Shown: positions 4,350 through 34,531 of the stretch, piece after piece
Numbering within the stretch: position 1 is the first letter of the stretch
Layout: each line of letters starts with the position of its first letter
Origin: a bacterium
GTDB lineage: Bacteria; Patescibacteriota; Minisyncoccia; Phycocordibacterales; UBA5272
DNA: 64,000 bases
Direction: 5' to 3'
Assembly: GCA_023267595.1 (NCBI GenBank)
Contig: JAHFNB010000003.1
Span: 2,165-66,164 of the forward strand
Notes under the pieces: generated by a model
The model's database searches: none
Told to the model about the DNA's origin: nothing
Seen by the model: the letters and a program-made list of their open reading frames with translations, nothing else
Program-made: the position numbers and the translations under genes

Positions 4350-4766
4350 ATGAAAACATCAGTTGCTATTAAATCTTCAAAAATTGTAAAGTTAGAAGAA
4401 ACGAAAACAAAATTACAGGCATTACTTACTGCAAAAAATGGAATGATTGTCCTTATCCTTGTTTGTCTTTTTTCTTTAGGATTTGGAATGTATTTTTATC
4501 AAAAAGCAAATAATAATCCACAAAAGATTGCACAACAAGACTTAGAAGATACTATTGCTGCAGTTGGTAAACTTATGGTTCTTCCAGTAGGGGAAGTTCC
4601 AACACTTGCAACTGTTTCAGATCCAGAAAAATTACGTGATCAATCTTTCTTTGCTAATGCAAAAAAGGATGACAAAGTCCTAATTTATAGTACTGCAGGT
4701 AAAGCCATTCTCTACAACCCATCATCAAATAAAATTGTAGAAGTTTCTCCACTGAAGAGTCGATAG
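4350..4766 (+). CDS. Hypothetical single-pass membrane protein
   Basis: 138-aa ORF 23 nt after the giant protein stop. One hydrophobic helix (IVLILVCLFSLGFGMYFY) then a soluble domain. Confidence 0.5.
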   Translation: MKTSVAIKSSKIVKLEETKTKLQALLTAKNGMIVLILVCLFSLGFGMYFYQKANNNPQKIAQQDLEDTIAAVGKLMVLPVGEVPTLATVSDPEKLRDQSFFANAKKDDKVLIYSTAGKAILYNPSSNKIVEVSPLKSR

Positions 4767-4824
4767 TCTACAAAGAATAGTTTATCCAGTTTATTTTTTG
4801 TAGTAATAGGGTATCATAGTAACT

Positions 4825-6168
4825 ATGAAATCTCGTTTAGGAATTATCTTATGTGGTATTGGTATTTCCTTCTGTATCCCAGCCATTTCCCTTGCACAAG
4901 AGTCTACATCAACATCATTTAAAATGTTTGACCCTGTGATTGCACCGGGTGGATTTGCTACATCTACAAGTTTTCAATTATGGAGCACACTTACGGAAAT
5001 TGCTACAGGATTTAGTTCATCAACACTTTTTCAACTCGGCGCAGGGTTTTTGCGATATCCACTTGTTTCTACACCTATTGTTTCTGCTACTGCAGGAGAT
5101 GCACAAGTATTTTTGTCATGGACTGCTTCTCAAGGGTTTTGGCATATCATGCCTTCTACGTATATGCTCGGACGATCTACTATTTCAGGTGGTCCATACA
5201 CATTTAGTTCAGTTGGTTTTGGTTCTACCGTTACCGGTCTTACAAATGGAACCACCTATTATTTCGTCGTGCGTGTTCATGATGTAGATGGAAATGTATT
5301 GGCAACGTCGACTCAAGTCTCTGCTACACCACAAGCAGCAAGTAGTGGCGGTGGAGGCGGTGGAGGCGGTGGAGGCGGTGGAGGCGGTGGAGGCGGTGGA
5401 GGCGGTGGAGGCGGAGGCGCTAGTACACCAACGGCAACTGCAGTTGTATTTTATGGAAGAGCCTATCCAAAAAGTATTGTAACGTTACTTAAAGACGCAC
5501 AAATTGCAGCAACTACAATTGCAGGAGCAGACGCAAATTTCCAGATAAGTTTGTCAGGTATTTCTTCAGGGAATTATATTTTTTCATTATATGGTGAAGA
5601 TAATAAAGGTTTGCGATCATCACTTCTTTCTTTTCCGGTAAGTGTGACGCAAGGTGCTACAACCCAAGTCACTGGTATTTTTATTACACCAACTATTGAT
5701 GTAGATAAAAGTGAAGTACGACAAGGAGATAACATTGCAATTTTTGGACAAAGTACACCTCGTTCAGAAATTATTATAAGTGTGCATTCTGATGAAGAAT
5801 ATTTCCAAAAAAAGACATCAGATAATAATGGTGCATATCTTTTTAATTTTGATACATCAGTTCTTGAAATGGGACAACATCAAACAAAATCGAAGACATC
5901 ACTTGATGGAGAAATTAGTGCTTTTAGCCAAGTGATTGGATTTTTAGTTGGTACGAAAAATGTAGCAGCACTTACAAAAAAGAAAATTTTAAAAGGAGAT
6001 CTTAATAAAGATGGAAAAGTAAACTTAATAGATTTTTCTATTGCTTCGTTTTGGTATAGACGTCCACTTTCAGAATCATTTAAAGCAATTGAAATAGAAC
6101 GTTTAAATGCAGATGGAAAAGTTGATTTAAAAGATTTCAGTATTATGGCATTTTATTGGACCGGGTAA
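4825..6168 (+). CDS. Secreted protein with signal peptide, 24-residue poly-Gly linker and C-terminal type-I dockerin-like duplicated Ca-binding repeats
   Basis: N-terminal signal peptide (GIGISFCIPAISLAQE). C-terminus has two dockerin repeat segments, DLNKDGKVNLIDFS and LNADGKVDLKDFS. Gly24 run encoded by a 9-bp tandem repeat. Confidence 0.7.
   Translation: MKSRLGIILCGIGISFCIPAISLAQESTSTSFKMFDPVIAPGGFATSTSFQLWSTLTEIATGFSSSTLFQLGAGFLRYPLVSTPIVSATAGDAQVFLSWTASQGFWHIMPSTYMLGRSTISGGPYTFSSVGFGSTVTGLTNGTTYYFVVRVHDVDGNVLATSTQVSATPQAASSGGGGGGGGGGGGGGGGGGGGGGGGASTPTATAVVFYGRAYPKSIVTLLKDAQIAATTIAGADANFQISLSGISSGNYIFSLYGEDNKGLRSSLLSFPVSVTQGATTQVTGIFITPTIDVDKSEVRQGDNIAIFGQSTPRSEIIISVHSDEEYFQKKTSDNNGAYLFNFDTSVLEMGQHQTKSKTSLDGEISAFSQVIGFLVGTKNVAALTKKKILKGDLNKDGKVNLIDFSIASFWYRRPLSESFKAIEIERLNADGKVDLKDFSIMAFYWTG
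5347..5418. repeat. Tandem 9-bp microsatellite (GGCGGTGGA) x7 perfect plus one imperfect copy, encoding poly-Gly
   Basis: ggcggtgga repeated head-to-tail from 5347 to 5409, then ggcggaggc. The alternative frames give the VEAVEA and GGGG artefact ORFs at 4940 and 5288. Confidence 0.95.
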
Positions 6169-29528: not shown

Positions 29529-29651
29529 ATTTAAAATAATTTATTTGGTATAGAGACAGTATAGCGCCCTAAGGGGAAATAGGGAAGGATGCTAAGAATA
29601 GGTGGGGATAGAACGAAATCCCCATGACTAGTGGGGATTTAACAAAAGGGT

Positions 29652-30119
29652 TTATTTTTTGATGAATTTACCATTTTCTATCAAAATAAAACCATCTTCT
29701 TTTGAAACAAATATTCGATTTCTTATGGTAATGGAGAGTAGTTCGCCAAGTGGACTTTCTTTACTGGTAACTTGTAAAGAGTTACTTAGTCTTTTTACGA
29801 TAACTTGACGGTTACCTTTTCGTAAATCATCTTGATTCACTTGAAATTTTTGTTCAGGGGATGTAAAAATGAGATAGCGTATAATCATCCCCATAAAGTA
29901 AAATATCTCATCTGTATACGTCGAGAGTCCACGGTACTCCTTATCAGGAGGACATAAGGTAAACTCTATGGTTGTAGAAGTTCCAGCCGAGAAAAAATCA
30001 TGTTTTTGTAACTCGAGGATAACACGGTTAGGGATTTCAATGGTCCCACCCCTTTTTGCTACTTCAGAGGCAATACTAAGCCAAAGATATCGTGCTTGTT
30101 TAGATGTGTGGGTAGCCAT
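29652..30119 (-). CDS. Hypothetical protein
   Basis: 155 aa, no recognisable motifs. Confidence 0.4.
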   Translation of the reverse strand: MATHTSKQARYLWLSIASEVAKRGGTIEIPNRVILELQKHDFFSAGTSTTIEFTLCPPDKEYRGLSTYTDEIFYFMGMIIRYLIFTSPEQKFQVNQDDLRKGNRQVIVKRLSNSLQVTSKESPLGELLSITIRNRIFVSKEDGFILIENGKFIKK

Positions 30120-30271
30120 GAGTGGGCTTTCCTTCTATCTGTTAATGGTGAAGAACTTAGTTAACTATAATATACTATATATATTATACCTTGTCAAGAT
30201 ATATGAATATTTTTATATACTTTATTGTCTTTATAATATTGAAATAAAAGGAAAATACACAATGATTGGGA

Positions 30272-30544
30272 CTATTTTAAAAAATGACTAATAATAAGTG
30301 AAATAATCAAAGAAATTATACAAATAATCAAAAATCCAACCATATATACAAAAGCAACCGTAGTTCCTGTAACAGCAAGACCAATATGAGATGTGTTATT
30401 TATTTTATAGAAAAAGTAACCAATAATACCTATTAAACCAAGTAAAGCAAAAATTGAATGATACAGGATGATTTTTGATTTCTTCATACTATAAAACTTT
30501 ACACTGTATATAGCATTACACCTAGAAAAACTAATACGAAGCAA
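30272..30544 (-). CDS. Tiny two-TM membrane protein
   Basis: 90 aa, two hydrophobic helices. AT-rich surroundings. Confidence 0.3.
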   Translation of the reverse strand: MLRISFSRCNAIYSVKFYSMKKSKIILYHSIFALLGLIGIIGYFFYKINNTSHIGLAVTGTTVAFVYMVGFLIICIISLIISLIISHFLK

Positions 30545-30798
30545 GCAAAGAATCCAATAGTTTTTAAAAAGAATGTGAGTGCCTCTTGTTTATGTCCATC
30601 AACATATAAACGAAGAGGTTGGTAAAAGAATAAGAATCCCATCACTGCAACAGAAAGCACCAATAAACTAAGCATAAACATCGGGATAAATACTGTCTCT
30701 TTTTCTTCTCCTAATGTTGAAAATGTAGTGATAAGTGAAACAACTAACACTATGTACACTGAGGCTGCTAGTGAATGTATAAATGGATTTATTTTCAT
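30499..30798 (-). CDS. Tiny two/three-TM membrane protein
   Basis: 99 aa, hydrophobic helices. Overlaps its neighbour by 46 nt. Confidence 0.35.
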   Translation of the reverse strand: MKINPFIHSLAASVYIVLVVSLITTFSTLGEEKETVFIPMFMLSLLVLSVAVMGFLFFYQPLRLYVDGHKQEALTFFLKTIGFFACFVLVFLGVMLYTV

Positions 30799-30826
30799 GA
30801 ATCTAGTATAACAGAATTGAGACCTT

Positions 30827-31087
30827 TTACCTTAAATAAAAATAGAAACTAGTGGCTATTAGTATCTGAATGAAAATTACGAGTAAAAAACCTTTGAGAC
30901 TTGTAATTGATGAAGATTTAAATGAGTAGACCATCAAAGAAAGAAGATATACGATCATCGCCATTCCTATAACTACGAGGAGATTTGGGCCTTCAGGATC
31001 GTTAAAAAACATAAACATTACCCTAGAACATGTTATAGATGTTATACCTAAGATAAATAAGAATATCTTTTTTGATTTGGAAGACAT
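30827..31087 (-). CDS. Tiny two-TM membrane protein
   Basis: 86 aa, two hydrophobic helices. Confidence 0.35.
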   Translation of the reverse strand: MSSKSKKIFLFILGITSITCSRVMFMFFNDPEGPNLLVVIGMAMIVYLLSLMVYSFKSSSITSLKGFLLVIFIQILIATSFYFYLR

Positions 31088-31099
31088 GGTTCTAATGTT

Positions 31100-31243
31100 C
31101 TAGTTATCACAAGGGGAACTTATGTAATTACCTTGTTGACATATTATTATTTTGAAAACAGATAACTTCATATTGATAAAAAATAGACTTGTCATTATTA
31201 CAAAAACCATAAGTAATAAAAGATGTCGTTCATTTTGAGTCAT
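31100..31243 (-). CDS. Possible micro-protein with one TM helix. The track ORF extends to 31327 but would then run over direct repeat R1; Met 31243 is the likely start.
   Basis: MTQNERHLLLLMVFVIMTSLFFINMKL... Confidence 0.2.
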   Translation of the reverse strand: MTQNERHLLLLMVFVIMTSLFFINMKLSVFKIIICQQGNYISSPCDN

Positions 31244-31272
31244 GTGTGAAGTATAACAGACTATAATCTTTT

Positions 31273-31300
31273 CTTTGCTGGGGTTGTGGGACGAAGTTGG
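31273..31300. repeat. Direct repeat R1: degenerate tRNA-Gln 3'-end-like sequence (att-like)
   Basis: ctttgctggggttgtgggacgaagttgg. Shares tttgctgggg plus a gggac.gaa core with R2, and the first 12 nt with the real tRNA-Gln 3' end (R3). Confidence 0.6.
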
Positions 31301-31377
31301 AACTTTTTTAATACAATAAGTTGACACAAATATATAGATACTGTATTGTATTTTTAATCGAACTTTAAGGAGATCAC

Positions 31378-31734
31378 GTGTCCGACTGGCATATTACACC
31401 GAGGATTAAGGTCCGAGCCCATGCTCAATATTTGGACTTGCTTTCACACACGGTAAGCCGATGCGGAAAAGAGTTTTCTGAAAATAGAGTAGTATGTCCG
31501 AAAGGGCTCTATCGGAATGGGTATAGTAATCGTGCACTCAACTACTGTCTTGATATTGGTTTTTTGGTTCAGAGTGAAAACTCTTCCATGTGTTCGGTAA
31601 CAGTCGAAGGCGAAAGAGCACTTGAAGACTTAAAACAATACAGAATCAAAAGACAAATTGAGATCCTTCAAAAGAAAAAGAAGAAAATAGAGGATCAGAT
31701 TGCAACACTGCAAAAGGCCTACCGCCAAGCATAA
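31378..31734 (+). CDS. Hypothetical small protein with C-terminal coiled coil, carried on a ~0.5-kb islet between R1 and R2
   Basis: 118 aa. Ends in a very strong terminator. Cys/His-containing N-terminal half, K/E/Q-rich C-terminus. Confidence 0.45.
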   Translation: MSDWHITPRIKVRAHAQYLDLLSHTVSRCGKEFSENRVVCPKGLYRNGYSNRALNYCLDIGFLVQSENSSMCSVTVEGERALEDLKQYRIKRQIEILQKKKKKIEDQIATLQKAYRQA

Positions 31735-31735
31735 A

Positions 31736-31765
31736 CAAAATCGCTTCGGCGGTTTTGTTTTTTTT
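31736..31765 (+). terminator. Intrinsic terminator with UUCG tetraloop
   Basis: caaaatcgc-ttcg-gcggttttg, then TTTTTTT. Confidence 0.8.
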
Positions 31766-31792
31766 CTAACATAAAAATTTCTGCAAAATTAT

Positions 31793-31820
31793 TTTGCTGG
31801 GGCTGTGGGACGAAGTTGGG
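31793..31820. repeat. Direct repeat R2: second degenerate tRNA-Gln 3'-end-like sequence
   Basis: ttttgctggggctgtgggacgaagttgg, 26/28 identical to R1. Confidence 0.6.
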
Positions 31821-31833
31821 ACAAAATTAATTT

Positions 31834-32718
31834 CTAGTTAAAGCATTTTTCAATCAGCTCATCACAATTATCATAGATTTTAATTTCTACAGCTGGTATA
31901 CCGAACTTCTTATTTAAAAAGTCTATAATATAATCTTTTTTGTCTTTATTTTTAATCGTCACATGAATTTCTGATATAGAATATGGTGTAAACTCAATAT
32001 TATCTAAATTTATTTGTAGCCCATTACCTAGCCCTAAGATATATAATTTTTTAGTTCCATACATTTTTAACACATGTTTTTCACTTTCATGACAAGATAT
32101 TGCATCTATTACATCTTGTAGCTCACTCTTTTTTGTCTTTAAATGCCTATACAAACGATTAGCACTCTGTGATTCTTGTTCTGAATAAAAATTACCATGT
32201 GGATAGAAAGTTTGTACATAAGCCGAGAGGTTGGCTATTCTTGACCTATAGTCAACCTTTCTTTCTTTTTCTGTTAAATATTCAAAAAGAAGAATATTTT
32301 TGTCTAAAACATTATCATAGTTATAATTTATAAAAGCTATTTTATTTTCTAGATTATTACTATCTAAAATTTTTTGATTTAATTTATTTATCCAACCATC
32401 CTCATTTTCTTTATAGAGTTCTGTAAAAATTATTTTCATTATCAAAAAAATATAATTTTCAATTGTTAGACCGTTGGAACGATAATTCCTTGATCTTGAC
32501 TCTTTTGTAATACATTCGTCTATTGTATTATACTCTTTGCCATCTCCTACTTTTCTAAGCCAAGAAAGAATCTCTTCTTTATATTTTAAAGCTTTATCTT
32601 CCATAAACTTTTTTTCGATTAAGATAACAAGTTTATCCCAAGTAGGTAGTCCATAATCTACAGAGGCACCAGCACCAAGAATTAAAAGATGTTCTACTCG
32701 GCTACTAAGTTCTTTCAT
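31834..32718 (-). CDS. Stand-alone SIR2-like (SIR2_2 / DHS-like NAD-binding) protein; candidate NADase defence effector
   Basis: N-terminal LLILGAGASVDYGLPTWDKL (GAGxS...GLPxW signature). NYNYDNVLD (N-Y-D motif). YPHGNF (HG motif). LYILGLGNGLQ. On an islet between R2 and tRNA-Gln. Confidence 0.65.
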   Translation of the reverse strand: MKELSSRVEHLLILGAGASVDYGLPTWDKLVILIEKKFMEDKALKYKEEILSWLRKVGDGKEYNTIDECITKESRSRNYRSNGLTIENYIFLIMKIIFTELYKENEDGWINKLNQKILDSNNLENKIAFINYNYDNVLDKNILLFEYLTEKERKVDYRSRIANLSAYVQTFYPHGNFYSEQESQSANRLYRHLKTKKSELQDVIDAISCHESEKHVLKMYGTKKLYILGLGNGLQINLDNIEFTPYSISEIHVTIKNKDKKDYIIDFLNKKFGIPAVEIKIYDNCDELIEKCFN

Positions 32719-32894
32719 TTGATTTTAATTTATTTAGTTTATTAAAACTAGTTGTTGATTTAATAGTATACAAGGATTCGGTCACAAAACTCCCTCGCTT
32801 TGCTCGAAGTACTTTCGCGACCCCGTATTCGAGTCCTTACGTACGTGAAGCAGTTCACGTACTGTACCCCGAAAAGAAATAAGCTTTGCTTTTT

Positions 32895-32921
32895 CTTTGC
32901 TGGGGTACAAGGACTCGAACC
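32895..32921. repeat. Direct repeat R3 = 3' end of the intact tRNA-Gln plus flanking caaag
   Basis: ctttgctggggtacaaggactcgaacc. The first 12 nt are identical to R1. Confidence 0.6.
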
Positions 32922-32970
32922 TCGATACTCAGGACCAAAACCTGATGTCCTACCATTAGACGATACCCCA
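32900..32970 (-). tRNA. tRNA-Gln (anticodon UUG)
   Basis: Reverse complement TGGGGTATCGTCTAATGGTAGGACATCAGGTTTTGGTCCTGAGTATCGAGGTTCGAGTCCTTGTACCCCAG folds as a cloverleaf. U1:A72 (Gln identity). Anticodon loop TTTTGGT. T-loop TTCGAGT. Confidence 0.8.
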
Positions 32971-33007: not shown

Positions 33008-33086
33008 GTCCTGAGTGTCAGGACCACTGTATTTTACCGCTTCGTAAACTCCGCTTGCTGATGTCCTACCATTAGACGATACCCCA
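33008..33086 (-). pseudogene. Fragmented tRNA-Gln copy: exact duplicate of tRNA positions 1-29, then a 31-nt insertion at the anticodon loop, then GGTCCTGA; the 3' half is missing
   Basis: 33058-33086 is identical to 32942-32970. The reverse complement reads TGGGGTATCGTCTAATGGTAGGACATCAG-[CAAGCGGAGTTTACGAAGCGGTAAAATACAG]-TGGTCCTGA then diverges. Confidence 0.5.
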
Positions 33087-33893: not shown

Positions 33894-33928
33894 GAAATCT
33901 GATGCCTACGGCATCAGATTTCTTTTTA
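33894..33928 (+). terminator. Intrinsic terminator
   Basis: aaatctgatgcc-tac-ggcatcagattt (12-bp stem), then CTTTTTAT. Confidence 0.8.
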
Positions 33929-33991
33929 TATTTTTCTAGCATTAAGCATCGAGCCTCTAACTCTAGGTTCTCTCTGATATACTTATCTCTA

Positions 33992-34531
33992 ATGAAACAT
34001 CTAGTGTCTAGTCTGCAACTTATTTTTATACGCAAAGATAGTCGTTTTGTTATTATCACCACCACAGTTCTTTTTTTGTTGTTGCTTTTACTTGTACAAA
34101 ATGGAAGTGCGGCTCAGAATATCTTAGGGTTTGAAGTTCTGCCACCATTTAAACGGTTCACTCTTGCACTTGCAACATTCTTTGATATACAAAACACATT
34201 CACCATATCCTCTCTTATTCTTGCAACATTAGGATCATTACTTGGTGGTATTAATATTTCACTTGCCTATACCTATATACGTATGCGTGGTGAAATTGTT
34301 GTAAAAAGTGGACTCTATAGTGGTGTAGGGTTATTTTTTGCATTCTTAGGTATTGGATGTGCAGCATGTGGAACGGCATTACTCAGTGTTGTATTAAGTT
34401 TTTTTGGCTTTTCCACTATGCTTTCCTTACTACCATATCAAGGAGAAGAAATAGGATATATCGGTCTTATATTTTTATGTATAGCAACGTATACACTTGC
34501 ACAAAAAGTTGCATTACCAAACGTGTGTTAA
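33992..34531 (+). CDS. Hypothetical polytopic membrane protein. The track ORF from 33902 begins inside the terminator.
   Basis: 4-5 TM helices. Lies 7 nt upstream of the thermonuclease gene. Confidence 0.45.
   Translation: MKHLVSSLQLIFIRKDSRFVIITTTVLFLLLLLLVQNGSAAQNILGFEVLPPFKRFTLALATFFDIQNTFTISSLILATLGSLLGGINISLAYTYIRMRGEIVVKSGLYSGVGLFFAFLGIGCAACGTALLSVVLSFFGFSTMLSLLPYQGEEIGYIGLIFLCIATYTLAQKVALPNVC

Follow-up and report, generated by a model that had tools for sequence, protein, structure and literature searches.

Organisation of the locus

Patescibacteria (candidate phyla radiation, CPR) have tiny genomes, and their defence repertoire is poorly known. The locus described here lies in a 64-kb stretch of a patescibacterial genome (contig JAHFNB010000003.1, positions 2,165 to 66,164; hereafter the window) and contains a gene for a 294-amino-acid (aa) SIR2-like protein, which is found 180 nucleotides (nt) downstream of a tRNA-Gln(UUG) gene on the same strand (Table 1). 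SIR2 NADases are central effectors of bacterial immunity and, as immune effectors of this type are well known, the locus does not represent a new kind of system. What is new is the protein subfamily, which is unannotated, divergent, stand-alone, centred on the CPR and altered in one sequence motif, together with the layout of a tRNA-linked single-gene cassette.

An att-like repeat (site A) starts 11 nt past the stop codon of the SIR2-like gene, followed by a gene for a 118-aa protein on the opposite strand, and a second copy of the repeat (site B) is situated close outside this second gene, on its promoter side. A preliminary description of the sequence had called the two genes divergent; they are convergent, with their 3' ends facing each other across a gap of 99 nt. 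Relative to its closest homologue the 294-aa gene has a dN/dS of about 0.2, and it is therefore a real gene under purifying selection. For comparison with the window, loci of related genomes were fetched, which are referred to below by L-numbers (L001 etc.).

Table 1. Position of the SIR2-like gene and of associated features in the window.
Feature	Position	Strand or placement	Basis
Stand-alone SIR2-like (SIR2_2/SIRim-type) protein, 294 aa	31834..32718	(-)	Open reading frame (ORF), family alignment, PADLOC, AlphaFold2 (AF2)
tRNA-Gln(UUG), chromosomal anchor of the hotspot	32899..32970	(-)	ARAGORN; Rfam tRNA, 59.9 bits
Conserved tRNA-proximal spacer ending in the T-arm-like motif GACCGAATCCTTGTA	32767..32898	(-)	blastn against L099
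Site A, att-like repeat GTCCCAACTTCGTCCCACAGCCCCAGCAAA, the 3' part of which copies the tRNA-Gln 3' end	31793..31822	(-)	
Site B, second copy of the att-like repeat	31269..31303	(-)	
ORFan, 118 aa, separate cassette between sites A and B	31378..31734	(+)	ORF; one homologue
Intrinsic-terminator-like hairpin and T-run at the end of the 118-aa gene	31733..31760	(+)	
Variable hotspot region (SIR2-like gene, 118-aa ORFan, small transmembrane proteins, 155-aa ORFan)	29547..32766	between tRNA-Gln segment and SWIB gene	Synteny with L099, L100 and L101

The 294-aa protein is a divergent SIR2-type protein

The strings on which the protein had been assigned to the SIR2_2 family (LILGAGASVDYGLPTWDKL, NYNYDN, YPHGNF and ILGLGNG) are all found in its translation. 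In an alignment of 43 family sequences (residue numbers throughout are those of the window protein) they correspond to invariant or near-invariant columns (G15 A16 G17 S19 Y22 P25 W27; N133 Y134 D135; H174 G175; G229 L230 G231 G233 N237), among which G15, A16, G17, S19, P25, W27, N133, D135 and G175 are invariant and H174 is conserved in at least 90% of the sequences. As read from the alignment, the residues G15-A16-G17-x-S19, P25, W27, N133, D135 and H174-G175 would make up the classical sirtuin NAD site, and G15-A16-G17-x-S19, N133, D135 and H174 are predicted to bind and cleave NAD. The catalytic His, previously listed as absent, is present as H174 in YPHGNF and is matched to H146 of KomC in the alignment. 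The reported lack of a Zn ribbon was borne out: the canonical Pfam SIR2 model gave no match and the family alignment has no Cys4 Zn module, which is the normal state for the immune-type branch of SIR2 (PMC12700824).

The Pfam SIR2_2 model (PF13289), proposed as a check, did not match the protein even at E<=1 and was reached by only 7 of the 43 relatives, all at E>=0.013 and under the gathering score; a search of the PDB with the single 294-aa sequence was also negative. The PADLOC SIR2 model PDLC04087 matched the window protein (E=3.3e-5) and 43 of 43 relatives (best E 1.2e-8), and subsets of the family members gave weak matches to other PADLOC SIR2, Aga_SIR2, LmuA and ThsA models (ThsA in 1 of 43 members, E 0.0056). 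When a family profile was compared with the PDB, the best match was KomC, the SIR2 NADase of the Kongming system (E 5e-4), with GAGASvdYGLPvW aligned on GAGVSMNLGLPSW, NYNYD on TNYD and PHG on FHG. N133 thereby falls on the TNYD motif of KomC and H174 on H146, the residue mutated in PDB entry 9xvc, 'KomC(H146N)'. A comparison by hhalign with a second set of stand-alone SIR2-like proteins of about 300 aa (P0182-P0252, alignment A2) gave a probability of 99.6% (E 1e-24, 221 columns); PF13289 is reached by 14 of 19 A2 members.

The AF2 model built on the family alignment (pLDDT 94.3, pTM 0.92) folds the entire 294 aa into one SIR2-type domain, a Rossmann-type fold with a helical small subdomain, in agreement with the earlier statement that no sensor is fused to the protein. 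The top 50 Foldseek matches in the PDB were all immune-type SIR2 proteins (FAM118B, SPARSA-SIR2, SIR2-HerA, DSR2 and KomC) and nothing else, with probabilities of 0.85-1.0 over the top 50 and of at least 0.96 for the top 30, and in a viral structure library two sirtuins were the sole scoring matches. Despite the failed PF13289 check, the SIR2-type identity of the protein thus holds on four independent lines (PADLOC, the KomC profile, hhalign to A2 and AF2/Foldseek); of the original SIR2_2 assignment, the fold class stands and the Pfam match does not.

A conserved and patchily distributed family

Among 5.8 billion proteins searched, 164 relatives of the 294-aa protein were identified. The best 120 of these are about 284-318 aa long, except for a few truncated or extended ones, only one carries a Pfam domain, and their names are, where given, those of hypothetical proteins of Minisyncoccia, Paceibacterota, Parcubacteria and Magasanikbacteria. 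Identity among the family is 41-66%. HMMER, run exhaustively against 1.84 billion cluster representatives, gave 40 clusters at E<1e-30 and a tail of 1316 clusters at E<1e-3, most of them of 290-360 aa and stand-alone. Full-length relatives with 25-28% identity are found in Poribacteria and in a Woesearchaeote, while a scan of 2.9 million viral contigs gave no relative. A close or truncated member is present in about 23 of 185,579 species-representative genomes. This is a tight family of stand-alone proteins of about 300 aa that is almost confined to Patescibacteria; it is real, conserved, patchily distributed and named by no library searched. Searches of the literature uncovered no description of the family and no work on patescibacterial SIR2 proteins or on bacterial SIR2 defence genes that stand alone.

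The gene lies in a variable region behind tRNA-Gln

To examine the surroundings, the 14.5-kb orthologous loci of three syntenic Paceibacteria relatives (L099, L100 and L101) were compared with the window. The four share CysS, DnaB, RecR, L21, RmuC, YqeY and SNase as well as 236-aa, 179-aa and 96-aa proteins, and the tRNA-Gln(UUG) gene is 100% identical and in the same place in all three relatives. When compared by blastn, the similarity of the window to L099 ends at 32766/32767, 48 nt short of the ATG of the SIR2-like gene, and resumes at the SWIB gene (29546); the SIR2-like gene is therefore the first gene of a 3.2-kb variable region. On the 3' side of the tRNA-Gln gene, L099 carries small genes, unrelated to these, as far as the conserved SWIB gene. 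L100 has a 296-aa protein, a methyl-directed restriction endonuclease and a type II restriction-modification (R-M) pair there, and L101 (1-5286) has GajA (E 1e-271), inside which the locus ends, in addition to a large serine recombinase and a type II R-M pair. No member of the SIR2-like family was found in the three loci, so that one and the same tRNA-Gln shows a presence/absence polymorphism with other cargo in each relative. The view that the locus is a tRNA islet and integration hotspot is thus well founded, the cargo at the same tRNA-Gln differing among the three relatives and including R-M genes, GajA or a serine recombinase.

The repeats around the SIR2-like gene point in the same direction. 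A 27-nt repeat, CCAACTTCGTCCCACA[G/A]CCCCAGCAAA, occurs twice on the minus strand (31793-31819 and 31274-31300) and in none of 100 shuffles, and the last 16 nt of site B, ACCCCAGCAAAGAAAA (31269-31284), match the 3' end of tRNA-Gln and its flank (32891-32906) without a mismatch; the alignment of site B with the tRNA scores 32, compared with 24 at most in 20 shuffles. Significance is confined to the 27-nt and 16-nt repeats; the 10-nt match to CCCCAGCAAA alone was within shuffle noise and was discarded.

Several other features of the region were recorded. The L100 296-aa protein (4471-5361, minus strand) lies 45 nt 3' of the identical tRNA-Gln on the same strand and has no match in Pfam, PADLOC or PHROGs; it was rejected as a homologue of the SIR2-like protein (hhalign probability 0.1%) and is a candidate for a defence gene of its own. 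At 33058-33086 (minus strand), 116 nt upstream of the intact tRNA, the 5' part of tRNA-Gln is repeated exactly over 29 nt, and a perfect 7-bp hairpin (33008-33024) follows. L101 and L099 have partial copies of 29 and 15 nt, respectively, in the orthologous position, which marks the copy as an old, conserved feature of the locus, and L011 has a 12-nt fragment of the tRNA-Gln 5' part 108 nt upstream of its tRNA-Gln. The partial copy may be what is left of a tandem tRNA that has decayed, a leader element, or the scar of an old recombination event. What remains of the variable region (29652-31327) encodes a 75-aa ORF, a 155-aa protein and three membrane proteins of small size (86, 99 and 90 aa), none of which belongs to a library family; the 99-aa membrane protein is the only one with a homologue in a fetched locus (L013). 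On the other side, the 209-aa ORF at 33902-34531 (plus strand) has more than 100 orthologues of 179 aa with 66-78% identity over 86% of its length, by which it is probably mis-started, and its product is a highly conserved Paceibacteria membrane protein without a Pfam domain.

The 118-aa gene is a separate insertion

The preliminary description had put forward the 118-aa Cys/His-containing, coiled-coil protein as the candidate sensor partner of the SIR2-like effector. In such a two-gene system it would control the effector as a sensor or an antitoxin. The genes do adjoin each other, and a low-confidence AF2 model of the 118-aa protein (single sequence, pLDDT 60, too weak for a fold search) has a long C-terminal helix at residues 76-117 and may have a winged-helix-like core. 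The protein is an ORFan, assigned to no family in any library searched (Pfam, PADLOC, NCBIfam and PHROGs) and with a single homologue, of 65% identity, among 5.8 billion proteins; the contigs that carry this homologue show no SIR2 gene, being only 1.1-1.5 kb long and too short to show anything beyond. The expected co-occurrence was not seen, as no homologue of the 118-aa protein is encoded in any fetched SIR2-like locus (about 38 of them close-family). The convergent gene also has a terminator of its own, and it is bracketed by the 27-nt direct repeats and therefore represents a separate cassette inserted at an att-like site rather than an operon partner. Furthermore, neighbour clustering over 74 non-redundant loci with SIR2-like genes, about 38 of them close-family, revealed no family common to more than five loci, and the idea of a conserved partner gene was rejected. 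The two-gene system is effectively refuted and we regard its chances as negligible: in place of the undescribed two-gene configuration there is a conserved single-gene family, and the 118-aa gene is an unrelated, later and independent insertion beside it.

A further motif, TTAAAAA(A)G[TC]TCCAA[CT]..., precedes site B (31293-31316) and recurs twice (about 181-203 and 1017-1040) in L096, the contig of the sole 118-aa homologue, where its copies bracket two further small genes. Possibly the motif marks cassette boundaries and moves together with these small genes.

Association with tRNA genes across the family

The position behind a tRNA gene is a recurrent property of the family. Among the 35 close-family loci with enough upstream sequence, 15 family genes have a tRNA gene on the same strand at most 400 nt upstream, compared with 2 of 269 other ORFs of the same loci (Fisher p=4e-14). 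These are the window (32718-32970) and L001, L008, L011, L014, L015, L017, L018, L019, L044, L045, L058, L060, L064 and L098. The upstream gene is tRNA-Gln (CUG or UUG) in 10 loci, tRNA-Asn in three, and tRNA-Ser and tRNA-Trp in one each, with gaps between tRNA and gene of 3-380 nt. Copies of the tRNA 3' end are located inside the gap of long-gap loci (twice in L011, and in L017 and L098), and a site resembling the tRNA 3' end follows the stop codon within 120 nt in L011, L013, L017, L060, L008 and L098; no att repeats were detected in the short-gap loci L001, L014, L019, L045, L058 and L064. Tyrosine integrases adjoin the SIR2-like gene in L051 and L056.

The adjacency raises the question of whether the enzyme acts on tRNA-Gln or tRNA-Asn, for instance in an NAD-dependent modification. 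Its strength, the prevalence of just these two tRNAs and gaps as short as 3 nt would fit such a role, which we nevertheless judge very improbable: tRNA-Ser and tRNA-Trp are also found upstream, a nearby tRNA is lacking in over half of the loci, and the repeats of tRNA 3' ends point to site-specific integration. Three relatives have the identical tRNA-Gln without the gene, and the association is therefore one of position, reflecting site-specific integration, and not of function.

The gaps of down to 3 nt make co-transcription with the tRNA likely, and expression of the SIR2-like gene may ride on read-through from the tRNA promoter. No sigma-70-like site was found between the tRNA and the ATG, a result that says little given that promoter-like matches in the region are no commoner than in shuffles. 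A structured RNA or riboswitch in this interval was also considered and dismissed, Rfam finding the tRNA alone.

Other gene neighbourhoods of relatives

In several related loci the SIR2-like gene keeps company with genes of recognisable function. In L049 and L052 it forms part of a tight operon (gaps of at most 5 nt, or overlaps) with a Type III Mod gene, a gene for a 99-aa protein and a gene for a 901-aa Res-like helicase with GSGKT/DEAH/TAT motifs, an arrangement that may couple R-M and SIR2 functionally; in L052 (2191-7881), and likewise in L049, the SIR2-like gene and the gene for the 99-aa protein, which is WYL-like by eye only, lie between the Mod and the Res-like helicase genes. In L003 and L007 the SIR2-like gene follows an EcoRI-like methyltransferase by 1-13 nt. 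A cluster of a methylase, GmrSD-HNH and RhuM/Fic recurs in L003, L012 and L043 and, together with a distant SIR2-like homologue, in Poribacteria (L028). The recurrent cluster occupies L003 4959-10399, L043 395-6440, L007 4839-6891 and L028 3220-7023; its EcoRI-like adenine methylase has no visible cognate restriction endonuclease, and its GmrSD-HNH member is of the GmrSD_N+HNH type. MazG and a Schlafen-type helicase are neighbours in L012 and L020, and NUDIX proteins in L044 and L045. The Mod/Res, methylase, MazG and NUDIX neighbourhoods are defence-island contexts, each of them present in few loci.

These contexts bear on the possibility that the protein is an effector that depends on partners encoded elsewhere or in some genomes only, for example as an add-on to R-M or nucleotide-signalling systems, with the window copy working with unlinked genes or being an orphan. 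The tight Mod/SIR2-like/helicase operon, the close spacing behind the EcoRI-like methyltransferase, the recurrence of the combination of methyltransferase, GmrSD-HNH and SIR2-like protein even in Poribacteria, and the MazG or NUDIX neighbours in four loci, which loosely recall KomB of the Kongming system, all argue for it. Each association is restricted to at most five of about 38 close loci, most copies, including that of the window, have no such neighbour, and none of the families in question (Type III Mod/Res, EcoRI-like methyltransferase, GmrSD, RhuM/Fic, MazG and NUDIX) is encoded in the 64-kb window. We therefore consider dependence on unlinked partners unlikely.

Proposed function and its alternatives

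Taken together, the best reading of the locus is that of a mobile, horizontally acquired, single-gene SIR2-type defence cassette at a tRNA-Gln hotspot, to which we assign a probability of roughly 0.55. On this reading, the 294-aa gene encodes a divergent stand-alone member of the immune-type SIR2 proteins (SIR2_2/SIRim); it was acquired horizontally and occupies the edge nearest to the tRNA of a variable hotspot 3' of the chromosomal tRNA-Gln, in which related genomes carry defence genes. It would function as a single-gene module, with the 118-aa gene as an independent ORFan cassette. Given the intact GAGxS / N..D / H site, cleavage of NAD+ is the most likely activity, and an abortive-infection-type defence role is most likely by the same homology and by location: the protein would bind NAD+ via the GAGxS / N..D / H triad and cleave it upon an infection trigger. 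As there is neither a partner nor a sensor domain, triggering would most likely take place within the protein itself or through homo-oligomerisation. Oligomers are known from related proteins, the short SIR2 effectors KomC and FAM118B forming filaments (PMC13454610, PMC12700824) and the SIR2 of SIR2-HerA forming rings (PDB titles). The initial proposal of a minimal NAD-depletion defence thus survives as a stand-alone SIR2-type protein on a defence-carrying tRNA islet and not as a two-gene arrangement. The fold, the conserved motifs, the lack of a partner, the spread of the family, the polymorphism of the hotspot, the repeats and the link to tRNA genes are observed; the role in defence, the cleavage and depletion of NAD, and the ways in which the protein is activated and the gene mobilised are what we infer.

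A bolder version of the cassette interpretation may be put forward tentatively and is, in our estimation, doubtful. According to it, a protein of about 300 aa would confer immunity by itself, sensor and NAD-consuming effector being combined in one SIR2 domain with a rewired third NAD motif. Its gene would form an att-flanked single-gene cassette of about 1.1 kb that recombinases acting in trans insert behind CPR tRNA genes; integron-like arrays would then build up at tRNA-Gln, with the 118-aa ORFan as the next cassette.

A number of findings weigh against the assignment of a defence cassette. The protein lacks a PF13289 match and belongs to no NCBIfam or PHROGs family, and the TM-scores of the top 50 Foldseek matches are just 0.35-0.49. 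The third SIR2 motif reads GLGGGLxxN(L) in the family instead of G[YF]SxxD, and D194 of KomC has no conserved Asp as its counterpart, the aligned column being variable; N237 aligns with N196 of KomC, both within a low-scoring stretch of the alignment. In the KomBC study this Asp proved essential for NADase activity and was found to be a conserved residue of immune SIR2 effectors (PMC13454610). With the Asp gone and the third motif rewired, there is room for a different chemistry or for dependence on an unlinked partner. Regarding mobility, no integrase or recombinase is encoded in the window islet, and the 10 kb on either side of the 294-aa gene contain nothing recognisable as a defence gene, an integrase or a partner. 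Seven flanking ORFs had no PADLOC match (six of them on the low-coordinate side), and nine had no Pfam match except for an SNase. Att repeats are undetectable in many related loci, and some tRNA-linked loci share flanking FtsE/FtsX genes, so that the 15 linked cases are not all independent events. The defence role itself is deduced from location and homology.

Some of these points would suit a housekeeping or regulatory NAD-dependent enzyme of the CPR, for instance a deacylase or ADP-ribosyltransferase acting on a cellular target, in place of an immune protein. The degree of conservation within the family and the low dN/dS, the loss of the immune-NADase Asp, the altered third motif, the otherwise housekeeping context of the window and the possible co-transcription with the tRNA are all compatible with this explanation. 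It appears quite unlikely in view of the patchy distribution, the absence of the family from the orthologous locus of three close relatives, the R-M and Gabija genes that the variable region holds elsewhere, the att-like repeats that flank the gene, and the lack of a Zn ribbon combined with structural neighbours that are immune SIR2 proteins and not deacylases. Less probable still is a selfish stabilisation or toxin module, in which a SIR2-like toxin would maintain the islet or compete with mobile elements instead of acting against phages. A single-gene cassette flanked by att-like repeats at an integration hotspot would be a fitting form for such a module, and active SIR2 NADases are intrinsically toxic, as established for ThsA, DSR and KomC; an unregulated stand-alone toxin is not maintainable, and no antitoxin-like conserved neighbour was found.

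To our knowledge, every characterised immune SIR2 NADase comes with a sensing domain or with a partner protein, and a conserved stand-alone family of about 300 aa would test the minimum that is needed to couple the sensing of infection to the destruction of NAD+. With the hallmark Asp of immune NADases missing, the family may carry out a different chemistry. A compact single-gene module would suit the tiny genomes of the CPR, and the tRNA-linked, repeat-bounded layout hints at a cassette-type exchange of defence genes in these bacteria. Should the protein be an ordinary orphan effector, the finding would be that of a new, unannotated SIR2 subfamily.

Comparison with known SIR2 systems

KomC (PDB 8zsf and 9xvc), the best profile match in the PDB and also recovered by Foldseek, is likewise short (264 aa), consists of a SIR2 domain alone and has the GAGxSxxxGLPxW and xNYD motifs as well as the catalytic His before Gly (HG) in common with the window family. 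It differs in its GYSLSD194 motif, the family having GLGGGLxxN and no conserved Asp. KomC is active only as part of a filament with KomB, which is switched on by dITP produced with KomA (PMC13454610); neither KomA (deaminase-like) nor KomB (HAM1-type NTP pyrophosphatase) was found among the flanking ORFs of the window or conserved beside the relatives. Human FAM118B (PDB 9r3e) is the joint-best Foldseek match (E 2.9e-5, TM 0.46), tied with SPARSA (8jl0). Like the window protein, FAM118B and FAM118A are essentially a SIR2_2 domain alone (about 300-350 aa), have no Zn module and possess the same catalytic His and Asn residues, whereas sequence identity to FAM118B is 13% and its conserved Asp near the His, D255, has no counterpart in the window family. 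FAM118A/B are vertebrate-specific, filament-forming NAD-processing sirtuins, the activity of which requires the paralogue pair and head-to-tail filaments (PMC12700824).

The SIR2 domains of DSR2, SIR2-HerA (Nezha), SPARSA and ThsA have the same fold class and come next in the Foldseek list, but are fused to or encoded beside further components, namely the DSR2 C-terminal region, HerA, pAgo/APAZ, and SLOG with ThsB. The sensors and partners of DSR1/DSR2, SIR2-HerA, SPARSA and Avs5 (HerA, pAgo-APAZ, STAND) were found neither in the 294-aa protein nor among its neighbours or in the related loci, and, as regards Thoeris, the protein has no SLOG or Macro domain and its gene no TIR neighbour.

A parallel in architecture is provided by the A2 proteins, which are stand-alone, of the same length and with the same order of motifs (ILGAGAS..P, SID/TID, W, FNYD, HG, LGxG...NL). 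They differ from the window family in their reach to PF13289 and in the C-terminal 50 aa or so, and overall identity is about 24%. A2 is a much larger and phylogenetically broad set (motifs ILGAGAS.PYGFP, FITFNYDRSLE, HVHG and FLGFGY...NL), borderline in PF13289, with weak similarity to Pfam AbiH and no specific PADLOC model, and as far as the libraries show these proteins also appear to be uncharacterised.

At the level of the locus, the units differ from tRNA-integrated islets and elements of the CIME type in being single genes of 0.5-1.1 kb, far below the size of typical islands, and in the lack of an integrase in the window islet. They are alike in their direct repeats that copy the tRNA 3' end, in tandem cassettes separated by repeats, in presence/absence polymorphism and in the occurrence of a recombinase in some versions of the hotspot. 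The layout is one that we take to resemble att-flanked, integrase-less cis-mobilisable elements (CIME) that accrete in tandem.

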